From an uncultured Gammaproteobacteria bacterium (GTDB lineage Bacteria; Patescibacteriota; Microgenomatia; Levybacterales; UBA12049), in NCBI GenBank assembly GCA_964497535.1, contig CAZCCG010000004.1, positions 15,218-79,217 of the forward strand: a stretch of 64,000 nt of DNA, given 5' to 3'. The position numbers were made by a program, and so were the translations under genes. Each line of letters begins with the position of its first letter. The first letter of the stretch is position 1. Positions 7,283 through 16,631 of this stretch are shown one piece after another. The notes under the pieces were generated by a model. That model had not been told where the DNA came from. It searched no databases and saw only the letters and a program-made list of their open reading frames with translations.

Positions 7283-7335
7283 CCCACTCGAGTGGAAACT
7301 TCAAGATAATAAAAACCCCCGTCTTGGGGGTTTTT
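7283..7335. terminator. Palindrome CCACTCGAGTGG followed by an intrinsic terminator AAAAACCCCC-GTCTT-GGGGG-TTTTT, functional on both strands
   Basis: A GC stem flanked by A and T runs lies between convergent genes. These are the DUF5679 gene on the plus strand and korB on the minus strand. Confidence 0.6.
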
Positions 7336-7365
7336 AGTTTGATTCCAAACTTTTAAGAAAAGAAA

Positions 7366-8341: not shown

Positions 8342-10081
8342 TTAAATAAGCGTTTGGACTTTCTCCACAATTTCTTCTGCATAGAATGGTCTTCCGTCAT
8401 ATTTTCTCATATTATGGTTGACAGATAAACCTGTCTTTTCACGAATCAGTCCTTCAAACTGTCCGGTAAAATTTTCTTCTAAAATTAAGGTCTTTTTTGC
8501 GTTCTTAATAACTTGTGCTACAACTTCTGAAGGAAATGGATTCATATAGGCAACTTGTAAAAAATTTACGGTTATTCCTGTATCTTTTAATATACGCATT
8601 GCATCTAGAATTGGAAGTTTGGATGAACCAAACGCAAGCAGAGTTATTTGTGCATCAGATGGCCCTTGTAAATCAGGTGAGGAAATCTCCAATGTTGCTT
8701 GGTCCAGTTTTTTGAATCGTTTGGTCATCATTTTCACCCGTACCGTTGCTTCTTCATTGTATAACCCCTTTTCATCATGCTCATCAGAACCTGACAAGCC
8801 AATTCCTCCTTGTTGTCCCGGTATACTACGGGGAGAAACCCCATCATCTGTTAATTCATATCGTTTGTAATCTTGGATTTGTTTTGCCTGATCATCGTTC
8901 AATAATTTCCCTCGCTCAAGCTTAAAAGCTGCAGCATGATCTTTCAATACTGACTCAAGAACCGAAGCATGAGCTTCCATAATATATTTATCAACCAGTA
9001 CGATTACCTGTAACTGGTATTTTTCAGCCAAATTGAATGCCTGCATCGTATAGGTAAAAAGCTCGACCAGATCTCCGGGCGCTACAATAATACGAGGAAA
9101 ATCACCTTGTGCCGCATGCATTACAAACCGCAGATCTCCTTGATCCGTCCATGTCGGCATACCCGTTGCCGGTCCGGGTCTCATACCCATGATAATAACC
9201 AACGGAGTCTCTGTTTGTGCAGCAAGCCCCAGACTCTCTACCATGAGCGAAAAACCACCTCCGCTGGTAGCAACCATACTTCTGGCTCCGGCAAACGATG
9301 CACCCAGAGCCATATTGATTCCGGCAATTTCATCTTCTGGCTCTTTTGCCACAATGTTGTATTTCAATGCATGCGCTACAAGAGTTGTCATAACGCTATT
9401 AATGGGAGTCATGGGGTAAATTGCGGCGAATTTAAGTCCTGCTCGTATTGCCCCCAATGCAACTGCTTCTCCCCCTCCAAGAAGTATTTTTTCTTGAGGT
9501 TTTTTTTCTACCAATGCTTTGCAGGAAGAGGCAAAATGTTGCTTCACGTAATCAAACCCTGCCTTTGAAGTATTTATATTTTCCGCAATGACCGTTTCTC
9601 CTTTTCTGCCAAAAATATCCTGCAAAATTTTCTGTAATACTTCGTAATCAGGATAAAAAAGAGGCAGAGATGCCCCCACAGCGACAGTATTAACCATCAG
9701 ACGATCGGCTTTTACTTGTTGAGTCAACTCAAGAAATGGAACCGCCAACAATGATACCGTTACGGGAAATTCTCCATCTGCAATTTTTGTCATTGCCGGA
9801 TCATAGAGAACAAAAGCATTGGGTGCCAGTTCATCTTTATGCTTATCTATGGTATCTCGATTTAACGCAACCAGAATATCTACCGGCATTTTTTGAGAAT
9901 GTATTTCGACATCCGCAGCTCTGACATAATAAGCATTATGTCCACCCCGAATTAAAGAGGGATATTCCACATAATCAAAAACAGAAAGTCCAAGACGGGT
10001 AAAAATTTTTGACATCATCGTACCTACCGTCATGATGCCATATCCTGCTTCTCCACCAATTAACCACTGAATATCTACCAT
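8342..10081 (-). CDS. korA: 2-oxoacid:ferredoxin oxidoreductase alpha subunit (fused gamma-alpha, two-subunit OFOR type)
   Basis: 579 aa with an N-terminal gamma-like domain followed by the alpha transketolase-like domain. It lies directly upstream of korB. Confidence 0.9.
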   Translation of the reverse strand: MVDIQWLIGGEAGYGIMTVGTMMSKIFTRLGLSVFDYVEYPSLIRGGHNAYYVRAADVEIHSQKMPVDILVALNRDTIDKHKDELAPNAFVLYDPAMTKIADGEFPVTVSLLAVPFLELTQQVKADRLMVNTVAVGASLPLFYPDYEVLQKILQDIFGRKGETVIAENINTSKAGFDYVKQHFASSCKALVEKKPQEKILLGGGEAVALGAIRAGLKFAAIYPMTPINSVMTTLVAHALKYNIVAKEPEDEIAGINMALGASFAGARSMVATSGGGFSLMVESLGLAAQTETPLVIIMGMRPGPATGMPTWTDQGDLRFVMHAAQGDFPRIIVAPGDLVELFTYTMQAFNLAEKYQLQVIVLVDKYIMEAHASVLESVLKDHAAAFKLERGKLLNDDQAKQIQDYKRYELTDDGVSPRSIPGQQGGIGLSGSDEHDEKGLYNEEATVRVKMMTKRFKKLDQATLEISSPDLQGPSDAQITLLAFGSSKLPILDAMRILKDTGITVNFLQVAYMNPFPSEVVAQVIKNAKKTLILEENFTGQFEGLIREKTGLSVNHNMRKYDGRPFYAEEIVEKVQTLI

Positions 10082-10137
10082 ACTAGTAATTCCTGAACCA
10101 ATTATAAACTAAATCCACATGAATTCCAATATAATCA

Positions 10138-10170
10138 AACTATACGCTAAACGCTTATAACTAAACGCTG
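10138..10170. repeat. Copy B of the dispersed ACGCT-unit repeat ('aaactatacgctaaacgcttataactaaacgctg')
   Basis: Seen directly in the spacer between the ferredoxin gene and korA. It is about 94% identical to copy C at 60616. Confidence 0.55.
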
Positions 10171-10248
10171 ATTATTCACCATAGTGTACTTGAAATCATT
10201 TGCATTACGAAGATTCTAATTTAAAACTTTGCGCTTTGAACTTTCAAC

Positions 10249-10521
10249 TTACTGAGGCCAGACTTGTTTTACTTCATTTCCCGCTTCATCAACTTCAACG
10301 ATAATTATTGCGTTCACCGGACATGATTTTGAAGCATTCAGGATATTTTGTTCTGTGTCATTGATATCGGCATAGTTGACAAAATCCGATGTCATCGTGC
10401 CGTCCTTTTTCTTGATAACAGCTTTACCTTCACTATCCAGATCAAATGCCTGAGGAGCTACTGCGACACAACTTGCCGCACCAATACACATTTCTCGATC
10501 AACTTTTACTTTATATGGCAT
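10249..10521 (-). CDS. Small ferredoxin (single [4Fe-4S]/[3Fe-4S]-type cluster)
   Basis: 90 aa with 'MPYKVKVDREMCIGAASCVAVAP' and 'SCPVNAI'. It is adjacent to the OFOR genes. Confidence 0.8.
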   Translation of the reverse strand: MPYKVKVDREMCIGAASCVAVAPQAFDLDSEGKAVIKKKDGTMTSDFVNYADINDTEQNILNASKSCPVNAIIIVEVDEAGNEVKQVWPQ

Positions 10522-10525
10522 AGTT

Positions 10526-10909
10526 TTATGTTAGACAATCTTGAAGTACCGCAAAAGCCAACAGCGCACATTTCTTTCGTGTCTGCGAAACTTCAATTCC
10601 AAGTAAATTCAGCATATCGTTTTCGTTCATTTTTGTCAACTCTGCTTTTGTTTTTCCTTTTACGTGTTCGGTCAAAATTGACGCACTTGCTATAGCGATG
10701 GCACATCCTTTACCCTGAAACGAAATGTTTTTAATCCCTGTGTCCCTCCTGTCCCTTTTTCCCCCTTTGTCCCATTTTATATACAGTTCTATTTCATCTC
10801 CGCAAAAAGGATTTAATTGCGTTGAGGTACTATCAAATACGAACGGTTTTCCATAGTTTTGCGGCTCCCGATAATGCTCCAGAATTTCTTCTTTATATAG
10901 CATGTCCAT
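10526..10909 (-). CDS. sufU: SufU/IscU-like Fe-S cluster assembly scaffold (SUF-type NifU)
   Basis: 127 aa with 'FCGDEIEL', 'GKGCAIAIASAS' and a C-terminal 'KKCALLAF'. That gives three Cys plus an Asp, typical of SufU. Confidence 0.8.
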   Translation of the reverse strand: MDMLYKEEILEHYREPQNYGKPFVFDSTSTQLNPFCGDEIELYIKWDKGGKRDRRDTGIKNISFQGKGCAIAIASASILTEHVKGKTKAELTKMNENDMLNLLGIEVSQTRKKCALLAFAVLQDCLT

Positions 10910-10933
10910 AGGATAGTTATTTTACCATATTCA

Positions 10934-11704
10934 CTACACCTCTATTGTAACTATCAAAGGCAGATGATCTGAGATATCCACTTGAGGCATACAATGCTCT
11001 GCAACCGCAATATCCGAACTTACAAATACCATATCTACCACTGCTGTTGCATACCCCGGATTTTTCTTTTGTTTCATATTAAAAGTAGAAACCAGTTCGT
11101 CTTTAAAAACATTTTTGAGATGTTTTTGGATATTTTGAATCGTTTGGGTAGCCGGACGTAAATTAAAATCTCCTGCCAGAATAACTGAATCCATATCTTG
11201 AATTTGGTCAATAATTGTATTACTCATATGTATCCTCCGCGGGTTATCCCCACCGTCTAATCCCCATATCCCATGAGTATTAAAAAGATGTAAATTTTTA
11301 TGAGGCAATTGGACGATTACATGTTGCAGGTTATGCGGCCAGAAAGTAAAATCTCCATCTTTTTTCGCATTTTCTTCATTTTCACTATATTCACCATACG
11401 GTACATCATAAAAAATTGTTTCTTTTTCTTCCAATGGAAATTTAGAAAAAATTGCGTTTCCCTGATCTACTTTTCCAAAGTCTGCCCTGTCTAGCATCTC
11501 GGCGGCAAAACGTACATAAGGAAGTGATAACTCAAGCTGTAATACCTCAACTGTTCGATATCGCCGCTCCCACTTTGAATTGGTACCGTTATAAACTTCT
11601 TGGAGACAGAGTATATCTGCATTTGCATTTTTTAAAAAATGCAAAAGGTTATCCATGAACCTTCCCCCATGCAAAATATTGAGATTAATTATTTTTAGTT
11701 TCAT
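10934..11704 (-). CDS. Endonuclease/exonuclease/phosphatase (EEP) family protein
   Basis: 256 aa with 'ILCLQEV' at the N-terminus and 'SDHLPL' at the C-terminus. Confidence 0.8.
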   Translation of the reverse strand: MKLKIINLNILHGGRFMDNLLHFLKNANADILCLQEVYNGTNSKWERRYRTVEVLQLELSLPYVRFAAEMLDRADFGKVDQGNAIFSKFPLEEKETIFYDVPYGEYSENEENAKKDGDFTFWPHNLQHVIVQLPHKNLHLFNTHGIWGLDGGDNPRRIHMSNTIIDQIQDMDSVILAGDFNLRPATQTIQNIQKHLKNVFKDELVSTFNMKQKKNPGYATAVVDMVFVSSDIAVAEHCMPQVDISDHLPLIVTIEV

Positions 11705-12398
11705 CTTCTGTTAGCAGATTGTATAAGACAGGAAACAGTTTTTCTTCCCATTTTGAATATTCTTTTGCACTCGGATGGAGACCATCATATGTCTGTAATG
11801 TTCTATCATTTCCCATTTCTTTTGACAAGCCTGTTACATCAACAACCGGTATACTGCGTCTTTGTGCTTCTTCTTTAATAATCTGGTTGAATTGGTTGAT
11901 TTGTACTAGAACAGTATCTTTACCATAATATTTATGCCAAAATGGTGTCACTGAAAAATCAGGAATTGTCAAAAGTACGATCTTATTCTTTTGCGGCAGC
12001 CGTGATTGAATATAATCTAGAATATAAGAAAGGTTTTTTGCAAATGTTTCAGAAGAAACTCCCTGGACTATATCATTCGTACCCAGCATTACCGTAGCAA
12101 TGATTGGATGAGATGAATCAACAACAGGTAATTCAAATTCTATGGCATCTTGTGTTGTATACCCTGTTATCGAAGGATTTGCTACTAATGTAATCGGTAT
12201 TCCCGCAGATTGTAAGTGCCGGGTTACCAGTGATGGGTAATTATGAGCAGTATCAACATTTTGACCAATAGTATATGAATCACCAATTGCGATATAAGCA
12301 ATTGTAGCGTTATTATTTTTTATCGGAACGTTGGGGACTTTCTGCATAACAATAACTACCAGAAATAATACCACTACAATCGTTAGAACTTTACGCAC
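11685..12398 (-). CDS. SGNH/GDSL hydrolase family protein (secreted)
   Basis: 237 aa with a signal peptide and the blocks 'IGDSYT', 'GTND' and 'DGLHPS'. Confidence 0.8.
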   Translation of the reverse strand: MRKVLTIVVVLFLVVIVMQKVPNVPIKNNNATIAYIAIGDSYTIGQNVDTAHNYPSLVTRHLQSAGIPITLVANPSITGYTTQDAIEFELPVVDSSHPIIATVMLGTNDIVQGVSSETFAKNLSYILDYIQSRLPQKNKIVLLTIPDFSVTPFWHKYYGKDTVLVQINQFNQIIKEEAQRRSIPVVDVTGLSKEMGNDRTLQTYDGLHPSAKEYSKWEEKLFPVLYNLLTEDETKNN

Positions 12399-12422
12399 AT
12401 TGAAAGTATACCAAATACTATA

Positions 12423-13196
12423 TTACTGTAGGTTATATTTTTGTTTGAGGTTATACAAAAACCGGTCTTTTACTACAATATCCTGCAATATTTCAAGTTC
12501 CATCTTATCAAATAACTTATCTTTCTCCTCTTTAGATTTTTTAAGCCACGAGTACCACTGTGATTTTTTGAGTGATTGGTAATTAGCGGCAATCCTGATA
12601 ATTGCATTTTCTATTGTCGAATATACGTTGTGTAATTGTTCAACCGAATAGTCTTCTATATGTTCTATTGATTGTTTCTCATGTATTTGAGCCAGTGTTG
12701 CATAATCATGCTTGCGATATGCTATATTAATCTGCTTCATAATTTCTTCCCTGTTTTTTCTATCATCCGGGCTTTGTGCCAAATCCGGATGAAATAAATG
12801 AACTAATTTTTTCCAAAGTTTTTTAATATCTTCTTTTTCTTCTCCCTCAGTTTCCTCAAAAGCACTCATATCAAAAAAGAACGATTCATCGGATTCATCT
12901 GATTTCCTGAATTGTTTCTTTACTTCTTTCAAAGCCTCTTCATAAGACAAACCTTTATCCATAAGACTATTTATCTTTTTATATTGTATGATTTGCAAAT
13001 CCAAAGCATTATCGCGAATATAGTGGGTGCCGACACGCCGGTTATATTCCTGTTGGACTGCGGTAATTCGCATTTCAAGCTCTTCATATTTTTCAGTGAC
13101 GGTAAAAAGAGCTTTTTTACGCTTTTCGATCACTTTTTGCAATCGTTGTTGTTCTTTCTCCAAATCGCTGAGATGAAGTATCAGATTATTTTGCAT
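12423..13196 (-). CDS. J-domain (DnaJ-like, HPD motif) protein with an N-terminal coiled coil
   Basis: 'LWKKLVHLFHPDLAQSPDDRKNREEIMKQINIAYRK' is J-domain-like. I trimmed the start to the internal ATG at 13196, because the 50 codons upstream in the track ORF cover a structured non-coding region. Confidence 0.6.
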   Translation of the reverse strand: MQNNLILHLSDLEKEQQRLQKVIEKRKKALFTVTEKYEELEMRITAVQQEYNRRVGTHYIRDNALDLQIIQYKKINSLMDKGLSYEEALKEVKKQFRKSDESDESFFFDMSAFEETEGEEKEDIKKLWKKLVHLFHPDLAQSPDDRKNREEIMKQINIAYRKHDYATLAQIHEKQSIEHIEDYSVEQLHNVYSTIENAIIRIAANYQSLKKSQWYSWLKKSKEEKDKLFDKMELEILQDIVVKDRFLYNLKQKYNLQ

Positions 13197-13261
13197 ATGA
13201 ATTGTATATGATATCAAAAATGTGGGAAAATAACAAAAAGACAGCCTGAAAACGCAAATAG

Positions 13262-13357
13262 CGCCGAGTGAAAAAGGCGTTCTTGCTGACGAATAGTCAA
13301 AAACTGTGCAATGTACAGTTACTGATATGTATCGATCGGAAACCAATCACTCGGCGC
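13262..13357. repeat. Long-range inverted repeat GCGCCGAGTG ... CACTCGGCGC (10 bp arms, ~76-nt spacer)
   Basis: Seen directly. It lies upstream of the J-domain gene and at the 5' edge of the GC-rich segment. Confidence 0.4.
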
Positions 13358-13830
13358 TTGAAAGCACCTGAGAAAAGAATTGTTAGGCAGGGGAGAGACG
13401 GGGAATATCCCCGCCTCTCCCCACAACCACCCGCAAGAGAAGCGTAGCGATCAGCTCCTGGCGAAGTGGCCGGCCAACGGGGTGAGGGCGGACGAAGTCA
13501 GGCCATGGATCTTTGGCACATGCTGTGCTAACATCGGTACCTCCCCGAAACGACACTCGGGACTACCCCGAGTTGTCAAAAAAACCACCAAGGGTTTGCC
13601 AGAGAAAAGCTCCCGCTAGGCCGTAGCGAGACGGGAGATGTGGCGAAGATGGACGAAACCCAGACCCCCCTGATCAGATCCCAAACCAAATGGGCGAGTC
13701 GCGAGACCGAACCATGTGGTACCCCCCATTAAAACGGATCCGCAGTTTATTCCTGCAAGGGCAGCCCTTTCTCCACACCACCTACAGTCCTAGGTGGCCA
13801 GTGGAAAGAAAAGATAAATAGTTATCTACT
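13346..13830. other. GC-rich, highly structured non-coding segment; candidate large structured RNA or foreign DNA; strand unknown
   Basis: It is ~55-60% GC against a ~36% background. A 14-bp hairpin GGGGAGAGACGGGG-AATAT-CCCCGCCTCTCCCC lies at 13390-13422, with further stems at 13546-13562 and 13777-13798. It holds duplicated modules ('CGTAGCGA...GGCGAAG' twice), and all six reading frames are closed. Confidence 0.35.
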
Positions 13831-14005
13831 CATTCCACCGGTCACACTAAAAAATGGTATACAATTCTTAATAAACTCAACGTGCTAAAAAAAGAGAGGA
13901 ATTATTTATATGGCTGAATTTAGCTCTACAATAACTCCTGCCAAACGAAATACTAACAGAGATGATATACAAAATCAATAACCATTTCTTTGATATAATC
14001 ACGAG

Positions 14006-14500
14006 ATGGAATACAAAAATGTAGTTACAAATTTCGTGAAGGCATGGAATTTTACCAGGTCCGAAACCGTAGAAATCCTGCAGAGTCTCGATGATGATAA
14101 ATTACAGTTTCAACCAAAAGGAGAAAAGTGGCAATCGCTCTATTGGCAATTTGGCTGCATGGGGCGAACCCAGATAGTCTATACGCAGGCAATTATAACT
14201 GGCCGTATGGATTTTTCGCTCTTTCATTCAGACCAACTTCCGAAAAAGAATGATTTTCAGACAAAAGAGCAAATACAGGATTTTTTGGGAAAAGCGAATA
14301 AGGATTGGAGAGAGGCAATTGTATCACGAAGAAAAGAGGAAAATTTTACAGTGAAGTGGCCGGGATTTAACAAACCATTCATTAACCACATAGCAAGCCT
14401 TGCAGAACATGAACGGCTCCATCATGGACAATTGATTTCTTATTTTACAATGGCTGATTTTCAATTACCAAAAATCTTTAAATCAAATTGGGCATTATAA
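14006..14500 (+). CDS. DinB/YfiT-like (DinB_2 superfamily) metal-dependent protein
   Basis: 164 aa with a C-terminal 'SLAEHERLHHGQL' His cluster typical of the DinB family. The gene is AT-rich, and an extended -10 TGATATAAT sits 6 nt before the ATG. Confidence 0.65.
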   Translation: MEYKNVVTNFVKAWNFTRSETVEILQSLDDDKLQFQPKGEKWQSLYWQFGCMGRTQIVYTQAIITGRMDFSLFHSDQLPKKNDFQTKEQIQDFLGKANKDWREAIVSRRKEENFTVKWPGFNKPFINHIASLAEHERLHHGQLISYFTMADFQLPKIFKSNWAL

Positions 14501-14763
14501 CTACCTCTTTAAACGATTGAGCGCCGTGAATTAAAAGAACTTGAGAGATTGTGGTATACAACTGTCACTTCATTATGCAACAACTGTTACGCATTCTCTT
14601 CTGCTCCAATCCACGGCGCAATGGGAACCAAAACATACGAAAATCCTTTCGAAAAAGCGATGGAACACCCACCGGACAGCAAGGTAGGGCTCCTTACCGA
14701 TCCGATGGGTGTCTCCCAAAGCTTTAGCCAGACGGCTGAGTTGCCATCAGGCTACCGGATAGA

Positions 14764-15084
14764 TCAACCGGGACGGGGAGACAGGCCGAGCTGAGTTCTC
14801 ATCTTGGGATCGGACAAGACCACCACGAGCGTAGCGACGAGATACAGAACCACGAGGACTGGGACTGCCGGCAAGGCTAAATTTGCCACTGCCACCCAAG
14901 CCAGGACGGCACCGCCGCCGTAGACCCCGAAGGCTACCAATGCAGGGGTCGAGCCCTTCTCCAGCATGAGAAGCACTACGCCCAAGACAATCATGGGAGC
15001 CAAAAGCGCCACGCCGAGCATGAGCCGGTCGACCAGGAATAAAGAAACCACGTAGGCTGCCAGAGGCACGAGAACTCGCAACAT
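14764..15084 (-). CDS. Small hydrophobic membrane protein (3 predicted TM helices), GC3-rich and foreign-looking
   Basis: 106 aa, rich in Ala, Val and Leu. A consensus SD 'AAGGAGGA' lies 7 nt upstream of the ATG. It is about 60% GC, in sharp contrast to its neighbours. Confidence 0.5.
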   Translation of the reverse strand: MLRVLVPLAAYVVSLFLVDRLMLGVALLAPMIVLGVVLLMLEKGSTPALVAFGVYGGGAVLAWVAVANLALPAVPVLVVLYLVATLVVVLSDPKMRTQLGLSPRPG

Positions 15085-15416
15085 GTTGTTGTCCTCCTTG
15101 GACTGAAACGAACCACGTGCAGCTTCACCTATCCTCCTTTCTCCATGACTCTACGAGTCTTGAATGAAAGTGCCCTGTAGGACCAGGCGAAGAACCGCCA
15201 AGAAAAGACTTATATAAATCTTCTCTTGGCGATTCTCAGCCCGAACACATACCTATCTAAAAGAATTTTCGTAATTGTTAATGTACAGAAAAATTGGCAG
15301 AATAATACAAAACGCATTTTGCTTTGTACTATGGATTGCCAGAAGCATCGTAACAACGGACGAGCAAAAAGAATGTAATTCAGATTACATACTTACAAGT
15401 CATAGAGGATTATAGT

Positions 15417-16631
15417 TTATTTTTCGAGAAATATTTTTTGTGCCTTTTTAATTCCTTTTATCAGATTATCTACATCTTTTTTATCATTATAGAGATAAAA
15501 ACTGACACGTGCTGTCGCCGGTAATCCCAATGTTGTATGCAAAGGCATTGCACAATGATGTCCGGCACGGATACAAATCCCCTCTTCACCTAAAACTTGC
15601 GCAATATCATGAGGATGGATTCCATCAATTGTAAAACTAATAATTCCACTCCTCTTGGTACTAACTTTTGGTCCATATATTCGCATTCCTTCAATCTTTT
15701 CCATACACTCTAAGCAATACGCTATTAGCATTCTCTCCTGTTTTGCAATCGTATCCATTCCAATACTGTCCAGATAATCAATAGCTGCACCCAGACTAAT
15801 AATTCCCGAAATATCAGGAGTTCCTGCTTCAAACTTATCGGGAACCTTAGCAAACGTTGTCTGATCAATTGTAACTTTCCTAACCATTTCCCCACCAAAT
15901 AAAAAGGGAGGCATGTCCTCAAGTAATTTTTTCCGACCATATAAGACCCCTATTCCTGTTGATGCCATCATTTTGTGTCCGGAGAATACCAGAAAATCAC
16001 ATCCCAAATCCTGAACATCAACTTTCATATGAGGGACAGATTGCGCAGCATCTACTAAAACTATTAAACTCGGATTTATCTTTTTACAATCAGCTATTAT
16101 TTTTTTTAATGGATTTATTGTTCCCAAAACATTTGATACATGAGTAATCGCTAATAATTTCGCCTTTTTAATATTTAATATTTTATCTTTAATATCGAGG
16201 AAACCATTATCATTAATACCAATAACTTCAAACAAAACTTGCTTTTTTAAAGCAAGTTGCTGCCAAGGAACAAAGTTACTATGATGTTCCATAATCGTCC
16301 CTGCGATTACATCATCAGGATTTATATTTATATCTCCCCACGTATTCATGACCAAGTTAATTGCCTCAGTAGTATTGCGAACAAAAATAATCTCTGATGA
16401 TTCTGAAGCATTCAGAAATGCTGCAACTTTTTGTCTTACTTCTTCAACTTTTGCAGTAGCTCTCTCAGCAATTGGATAAAGCCCCCGCTTTACATTCGCA
16501 TTATAATTTTTGTAATAGTTCATCAGGGCATCCAAAACTATCTGAGGTTTTTGACTCGTTGCCGCAGAATCCAAATAAACTAACTTCTTATTATTTTTTA
16601 AAATCGGAAAATCGTTTTTATAACTTTTCAT
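15417..16631 (-). CDS. sufS: Cysteine desulfurase SufS (class V aminotransferase)
   Basis: 404 aa with a PLP-lysine region 'SGHKMMASTGIGVLYG'. It is in the suf operon. Confidence 0.9.
   Translation of the reverse strand: MKSYKNDFPILKNNKKLVYLDSAATSQKPQIVLDALMNYYKNYNANVKRGLYPIAERATAKVEEVRQKVAAFLNASESSEIIFVRNTTEAINLVMNTWGDININPDDVIAGTIMEHHSNFVPWQQLALKKQVLFEVIGINDNGFLDIKDKILNIKKAKLLAITHVSNVLGTINPLKKIIADCKKINPSLIVLVDAAQSVPHMKVDVQDLGCDFLVFSGHKMMASTGIGVLYGRKKLLEDMPPFLFGGEMVRKVTIDQTTFAKVPDKFEAGTPDISGIISLGAAIDYLDSIGMDTIAKQERMLIAYCLECMEKIEGMRIYGPKVSTKRSGIISFTIDGIHPHDIAQVLGEEGICIRAGHHCAMPLHTTLGLPATARVSFYLYNDKKDVDNLIKGIKKAQKIFLEK

Follow-up and report, generated by a model that had tools for sequence, protein, structure and literature searches.

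A GC-rich island without an open reading frame in a Levybacteria genome, tentatively read as one of two cassette-like units of horizontal origin

The stretch of DNA analysed here (the window) comprises 64,000 nt of contig CAZCCG010000004.1 from the assembly GCA_964497535.1, a genome that SufS homologues (nearest at 64-68% identity) place in Candidatus Levybacteria of the candidate phyla radiation (CPR). Within it lies a segment at 13346-13830, referred to as island 1, with 56% GC in a genome of 37% GC. The initial annotation had suggested two possibilities for this segment, a large structured RNA not described before or the remains of foreign DNA. The second of these is favoured by our results, since island 1 belongs to an insertion absent from syntenic relatives and shares its composition with a second GC-rich island (island 2) that bears an open reading frame (ORF) with foreign codon usage. 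The reading we prefer, tentatively and with somewhat less than even confidence, takes island 1 as one of two GC-rich, cassette-like units acquired by horizontal transfer and residing in a hypervariable slot, namely the one without an ORF. Each unit consists of an inverted-repeat element of about 100 bp (E; copies E1 and E2), a strong hairpin followed on the minus strand by a U-rich tract, about 340 nt of body, and one or two further hairpins. The body of unit 2 is an orphan membrane-protein gene and that of unit 1 a non-coding segment that is not detectably structured. The conspicuous stems of island 1 would be hairpins at unit boundaries or terminator-like hairpins and would not form the framework of a large RNA fold.

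A pair of GC-rich units between sufS and sufU

The GC spike described for island 1 was borne out by 200-nt windows, in which GC amounted to 0.55-0.60 across 13300-13800 vs. 0.29-0.40 on either side, and island 1 is among only three segments with GC of at least 0.52 in the whole window. Its base composition (A.282, T.163, C.287, G.268; the window as a whole: A.30, T.32, C.21, G.17) is indistinguishable from that of island 2 (A.280, T.156, C.301, G.263), a segment of 56% GC at 14600-15250 on the minus strand, and the two have the same strand-specific composition. Island 2 carries ORF106 (14764-15084, minus strand, ATG at 15084), an orphan gene for a hydrophobic membrane protein of 106 AA, with the Shine-Dalgarno sequence AAGGAGGA at 15092-15099. 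The product has about three hydrophobic segments and would thus be roughly a three-transmembrane (TM) protein. The period-3 power of ORF106 was 6.5 vs. 0.74 ± 0.44 in shuffles (p < 0.0005) and the signal was significant in most 60-120-nt windows, so that the sequence is taken to be coding. Its GC content at the three codon positions is.70/.40/.69, and because the value at the third position (GC3) lies above that of native genes (.26-.36), its codon usage is considered foreign. From composition and codon usage taken together we infer a foreign origin of the islands.

A word-seeded search of 5.8 billion proteins returned only ORF106 itself. When 1.84 billion representatives were searched exhaustively with HMMER, the results were ORF106 and two giant proteins matched in several short stretches, probably owing to low complexity. 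The ORF106 peptide was not found in the viral scan (IMG/VR). A type I toxin-antitoxin system was considered and rejected, as island 1 has no ORF and the 106-AA product of ORF106 is too large for the single-TM toxins (up to about 60 AA) of such systems.

Both islands are located in the gap between sufS and sufU (10934-15417, 4.5 kb), which contains an Exo_endo_phos gene, a GDSL lipase gene, a gene for a J-domain protein, island 1, DinB_2, and island 2. In the four syntenic relatives compared (contigs L006-L010) the gene order is GT2-PMT-(Rrf2)-sufC-sufB-sufD-sufS-[0, 1 or 3 small genes]-sufU-Fer4-POR-...-DUF4446-DUF3048, and that of the window is the same except for the content of the sufS-sufU gap. 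Neither a GC-rich segment nor an E core was found in this slot in any of the four. The sufS-sufU junction is a hypervariable slot in Levybacteria, with 0, 1 or 3 small genes in the relatives vs. six items here.

The genes next to the islands were also followed in other genomes. Homologues of DinB_2 with 60-65% identity (L001, L002, L033-L036) were found in different contexts, without an island and without E. One of these, 65% identical (L036, 3001-3495), lies between POR and Fer4 of the same suf/POR cluster in another genome, and it is suggested that the DinB_2 gene moves around within the suf/POR neighbourhood. For the J-domain neighbour, the sole relative among the species-representative genomes was one of 36% identity (L004), which lacks an island upstream, and the viral scan gave no match to its peptide. 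The contig L004, a CPR-like contig of 37% GC labelled 'Gammaproteobacteria', contains at 10838-11613 an ORF of 53-57% GC (~258 AA) with strong period-3, and GC-rich genes of this kind may be recurrent in such genomes.

As the source is a metagenome-assembled genome, the abrupt change in composition could also result from an assembly chimera, in which GC-rich reads of another organism were joined into a Levybacteria contig. We consider this very improbable. Two Logan contigs of SRR9179562, L032 (= 9911-14094) and L003 (= 14083-16029), match the window with 100% identity and reproduce all junctions, including both edges of both islands, so that an artefact of a single assembler does not account for the four GC/AT junctions. 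A chimera would also require four chimeric joins within 2 kb, and E1 and E2 link the islands to their AT-rich flanks. The two Logan contigs end and begin, respectively, inside DinB_2 at 14083-14094 with a 12-nt overlap, perhaps because the assembly graph branches there owing to strain variation or because coverage is low at this point.

Coding signals and folding of island 1

All six frames of island 1 are closed, in agreement with the initial annotation; the longest ORF has 79 AA, and the number of stops (3-6 per frame) is about that expected from composition. The period-3 power of the island was 0.23 (p = 0.94). The same test was significant in 38 of the 43 native 344-nt gene windows (88% power) and in every window of the GC-rich gene in L004. 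Among 60-120-nt sub-windows of island 1 there was one marginal signal, at 13423-13482 (p = 0.02). No Pfam domain was detected in the six frames, tblastn of ORF106 against island 1 gave no similarity, and an exact look-up of the island-1 ORFs in the protein collection indicated that none has ever been called as a gene. Island 1 thus has neither the open frame, nor the periodicity, nor the family match of a protein-coding gene or a recent pseudogene. With no period-3 and no six-frame Pfam match, the possibility that BLAST would reveal a fragment of a known protein gene, pointing to a pseudogenised horizontal acquisition, found no support. Stop-codon recoding was tried as an explanation for one minus frame (frame 2), which has three TAG and one TGA, but the absence of periodicity led us to reject it.

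Alternatively, island 1 could once have been a minus-strand cassette for a hydrophobic protein, like island 2, whose frame has been lost. Its strand composition is that of ORF106 (T-rich and A-poor on the minus strand), its body is comparable in length and flanked in the same way, by E and a hairpin on one side and a hairpin on the other, and the marginal window at 13423-13482 might be a remnant of periodicity. Yet there is no other period-3 signal in 60-120-nt windows, the stop counts are random-like, and neither the six-frame Pfam search nor the comparison with ORF106 gave a match; moreover, a decay so advanced that periodicity is gone would be expected to have lowered the GC content and blurred the sharp edges as well. 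A heavily decayed pseudogene is thus, in our judgement, distinctly unlikely.

The folding of island 1 was assessed against shuffles, and a structured molecule was expected to have an energy significantly below that of dinucleotide shuffles across its length. The whole island gave a z-score of -4.0 on the plus and -2.8 on the minus strand. For the central 344 nt (13423-13766), the GC-rich, non-coding body of the island, the values were -1.05 (plus) and +0.77 (minus), so that its structure is no greater than that of shuffles, and z was near 0 in most 120-nt sliding windows in the middle of the island. The z-score of the whole island is therefore due to the terminal hairpins. The z-score comparison proposed in the initial annotation thus gives no support to structure in the body and confines the signal to the ends; of its description as GC-rich, non-coding, and hairpin-dense, the first two terms stand and the third is true of the ends only.

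At the low-coordinate end, the hairpin reported at 13390-13422 was confirmed, with 15-nt arms, a 3-nt loop, 14/15 Watson-Crick pairs, and a pairing probability of 0.98-1.0. It is the strongest GC-rich hairpin of the whole window. The single A.C mismatch of the plus strand corresponds to a G.U pair on the minus strand, and the stem of a minus-strand RNA is perfect. About 10 nt past this hairpin, on the minus strand, starts a U-rich tract, CUUUUCUCAGG (13367-13378), which is terminator-like but non-canonical and which may, judging from the sequence, form part of a terminator. The high-coordinate end is formed by a compound hairpin at 13767-13808, CTTTCTCCAC-A-CCACCTA ... TAGGTGG-CCA-GTGGAAAG (z -4.8 / -4.5), which includes the CCACCTA/TAGGTGG stem noted before, located at 13778-13784 / 13791-13797. 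Two further stems lie inside the island. The hairpin GACA-CTCGGG-ACTAC-CCCGAG-T-TGTC (13552-13577) has a pairing probability of 0.87-1.0 on both strands; its CTCGGG-ACTAC-CCCGAG part had been recognised correctly as a stem but placed 10 nt off, at 13546-13562 instead of 13556-13572. The other, at 13610-13637, is followed by GCUUUUCUCUGG, and the consensus scan marked it as terminator-like on the minus strand (13599-13637).

Hairpins are found around ORF106 as well. Downstream of it, a long hairpin followed by CGCUUUUUCG (14665-14712, minus strand) is terminator-like, with a z of -6.1 on the minus strand, and the far end of island 2 carries hairpins at 15136-15172 and 15186-15241. The second of these, with 28-nt arms, lies between the sufS stop codon and ORF106 (z -8.0 on the minus strand); its arms are 82% complementary, with no loop gap, and no U-run follows it.

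Searches for known RNAs gave uniformly negative results. Rfam 15 at the gathering threshold had no match in the whole window, with families such as RNase P, transfer-messenger RNA (tmRNA), signal recognition particle (SRP) RNA, 6S, group I/II introns, riboswitches, OLE, GOLLD, ROOL, HEARO, and raiA covered among others. When the threshold was relaxed to E <= 10 for 13100-15400, only sub-threshold hairpin-type matches of 14-27 bits appeared (microRNA precursors, long non-coding RNA, HIV_GSL3, DUF3800-XI). The covariance-model scan called for by the initial annotation thus gave no family match. ARAGORN found no tRNA or tmRNA in the window, Tandem Repeats Finder returned nothing of relevance, neither island had a blastn match in plasmids or phages, and no segment of either one recurs in the remainder of the window at E <= 1. 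An RNA of a retron or a diversity-generating retroelement (DGR) was rejected, as the neighbours have no reverse transcriptase (RT) domain and there is no repeat pair.

The initial annotation had also described two duplicated modules of about 50 nt. The alignment given there was reproduced (pairwise p = 0.0025). In 13% of trials, however, some pair of windows in a shuffled island scored equally high (p about 0.13), which places the duplication at chance level. Under stricter scoring the halves of island 1 are no more alike than shuffles, and a scan for the module motif in viral contigs gave 3 chance matches.

These data bear directly on the proposal of an undescribed large structured non-coding RNA (ncRNA) of ~480 nt, whose GC content would be kept by selection and which would be transcribed from a plus-strand promoter inside E1 or from a minus-strand promoter at 13944-13917. 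An ORF-free, GC-rich intergenic segment in an AT-rich genome, with sharp GC edges despite AT pressure, is what such an RNA gene might look like; long GC-rich intergenic regions (GC-IGRs) are the search space of a pipeline for novel ncRNAs (PMC11109978). The z-score of the whole island on the plus strand and the nested long-range helices predicted on that strand (probability 0.36-0.64) point in the same direction. The body, however, folds like shuffles and the z-score derives from the two end hairpins; the loops of the island 1 hairpins are neither GNRA nor UNCG, only 4 of the 112 pairs in the predicted plus-strand fold are G.U, there is no Rfam match, and the island is absent from syntenic relatives and has no homologue in the collections searched. 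The sister island of the same composition is, furthermore, an mRNA. The initial suggestion of a large structured RNA was thus not supported, and we regard it as unlikely.

For island 1 as a cassette-like unit, transcription, if any, is expected on the minus strand, as judged from sequence features. The minus strand is the better candidate because the gene of the sister unit is encoded on it, because the 13390-13422 stem is perfect only as a minus-strand RNA, because both hairpin-plus-U-rich sites are on this strand, and because a sigma-70-like promoter match, TTGGCA-16-TAAATT (13917-13944, minus strand; a consensus match only), points into island 1. Transcription would proceed from near 13910 to the hairpin/U tracts at 13631-13601 or 13422-13367. 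The transcript would be non-coding, roughly 0.3-0.55 kb long, and would stop before the promoter of the J-domain gene. Between island 1 and DinB_2, on the plus strand, a 23-codon ORF, MAEFSSTITPAKRNTNRDDIQNQ, preceded by GAGAGGAA, is present at 13912-13983 and overlaps divergent promoter-like sites.

Inverted-repeat elements E1 and E2 and the question of mobility

The long-range inverted repeat of the initial annotation proved to be real and longer than claimed. E1 (13260-13358) has perfect 12-nt arms at 13260-13271 / 13347-13358, separated by a 75-nt AT-rich spacer, and adjoins island 1 at its low-coordinate edge. The initial annotation had overlooked the second GC island and the other copy of the inverted repeat: E2 (14520-14619), with arms at 14521-14532 / 14608-14619 that match at 11/12 positions and a spacer of 75 nt, begins 20 nt past the DinB_2 stop codon and adjoins island 2. 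E1 and E2 are in direct orientation, each at the low-coordinate edge of a GC island. The arms are AGCGCCGAGTGA/TCACTCGGCGCT in E1 and GCGCCGTGAATT/AATCCACGGCGC in E2, and the common core reads AGCGCCGnG...AAAAG...TTG-N16-AACTGT...CCAATC...CnCGGCGC, with the motifs in the same order. The sequence GCGCCGNG occurs four times in the 64 kb, all four occurrences being arms of E1 and E2. Where the arms differ between the two copies they have remained complementary: GCGCCG-A-G/C-T-CGGCGC in E1 and GCGCCG-T-G/C-A-CGGCGC in E2. As regards a possible invertible promoter (inverton), only weak promoter-like hexamers can be discerned in the sequence inside the E elements, and the annotated part of the window (97-43960) encodes no recombinase. 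LexA or IscR operators were considered for E1 and rejected, as the palindromes are not common to E2.

In the preferred reading, E would mark an insertion or recombination boundary of the units. A rival reading would be an active site-specific cassette or mobile system, with E as the recombination site, island 1 as an ORF-less cassette, and a recombinase encoded elsewhere that inserts, excises or inverts E together with its GC-rich unit. Two direct copies of E bracket island 1 and DinB_2, each adjoining a GC island; changes in one arm are compensated in the other; the slot that holds the units is hypervariable; and in L036 a DinB_2 homologue is found at a different point of the same cluster. 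At the same time, the annotated part of the window (97-43960) encodes no recombinase, the arms are unlike integron attC cores, no target-site duplication was noted by eye, and no further copy of E was found in viral or JGI metagenome collections. Specifically, the E pattern gave 21 chance matches in viral contigs (IMG/VR), in GC-rich phages; in JGI metagenomes the strict left-half pattern gave none and the right-half pattern 6 chance matches. Such an active system is therefore improbable, slightly more so than a decayed pseudogene, and we attach a still slimmer chance to the specific proposal that E1 and E2 are recombination sites of an undescribed CPR cassette or mobile system that delivers GC-rich units into variable slots, with island 1 an ORF-less cassette expressed as an ncRNA.

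Several observations also weigh against our preferred reading of island 1 as one of a pair of acquired units. A non-coding segment that keeps 56% GC and sharp edges under AT pressure could mean selection, e.g., for an RNA. The layout shared by the units is a likeness in architecture and composition only; apart from E, islands 1 and 2 have no significant sequence similarity. Inverted repeats of 12 nt with loops of 60-100 nt occur in the window at chance frequency, and the E1/E2 pair is non-random only in that both copies have the core, the spacer, and the position in common. None of the collections searched yielded a homologue of either island or of E that might point to a donor or to mobility, and among the annotated ORFs (97-43960; Pfam) there is no recombinase, transposase, or RT. 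The hairpin at 13390-13422 has no immediately adjacent U-run and differs from the one clear native terminator, at 7308-7338, so its role as a terminator is uncertain. The latter is a textbook bidirectional intrinsic terminator, AAAAACCCCC-GTCTT-GGGGGTTTTT, and the sole clear native one in the strong-hairpin scan.

Comparison with known systems and meaning

In functional terms the units seem most like a laterally acquired orphan islet, and by analogy their layout recalls integron cassettes with attC sites or cargo associated with miniature inverted-repeat transposable elements (MITEs). Like such islets, they are foreign in base composition and codon usage, are sharply bordered, are missing from syntenic relatives, hold orphan content, and sit in a slot that differs from one relative to another. 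Unlike classical genomic islands, they have no tRNA, integrase, or direct-repeat borders, measure only 0.5-0.7 kb, and carry a one-sided inverted-repeat element. PADLOC detected no defence system.

Resemblance to integron cassettes extends to the small size of the units, with one ORF or none, the direct orientation of the sites, and the orphan content; as in attC, an imperfect inverted repeat of ~100 bp follows the unit (on the minus strand) and its pairing is better conserved than its sequence. However, the E arms (AGCGCCGnG...) lack the R'' RYYYAAC and R' GTTRRRY cores, only two sites are present with no nearby integrase, and DinB_2 is in the opposite orientation. An attC site was therefore rejected: the cores are absent, and a lone GCCTAAC at 13383-13389 (minus strand) has no GTTRRRY partner in 13200-13380. 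No recombinase, and hence no integron integrase (IntI), was found by Pfam among the candidate genes of 97-43960.

MITE-like repeats (Correia/NEMIS, ERIC, RPE) are likewise of ~100 bp, with terminal inverted repeats, an intergenic position beside gene starts or ends, and an AT-rich interior with promoter-like hexamers. As regards the features of MITEs and insertion sequences (IS), E has terminal inverted repeats and occurs in two copies in 64 kb, and no flanking direct repeat or target-site duplication was noted by eye at the unit edges. Unlike MITE-like repeats, both copies of E are tied to GC islands and are not scattered. The large GC-rich structured RNAs known from AT-rich bacteria (OLE, GOLLD, ROOL, raiA, and HEARO) are similar to island 1 in size (~0.5 kb), in GC excess over the genome, and in the lack of an ORF; in contrast to them, island 1 has no cmscan match, a body that folds about as shuffles do, and no family of homologues.

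If the preferred reading holds, the results mainly call for caution in the annotation of AT-rich CPR genomes, where a long, GC-rich, ORF-free intergenic segment bearing hairpins is insufficient evidence for a structured RNA. In the present case two hairpins at the boundaries account for the fold signal, and the surroundings suggest DNA of recent acquisition. The analysis also records a hypervariable slot in the suf-POR cluster of Levybacteria and paired inverted-repeat elements tied to units of foreign composition. There is a small chance that E-bounded units are something new in CPR bacteria. If E were indeed a recombination site, it would provide a first handle on the uptake of small orphan cassettes by bacteria with small genomes.

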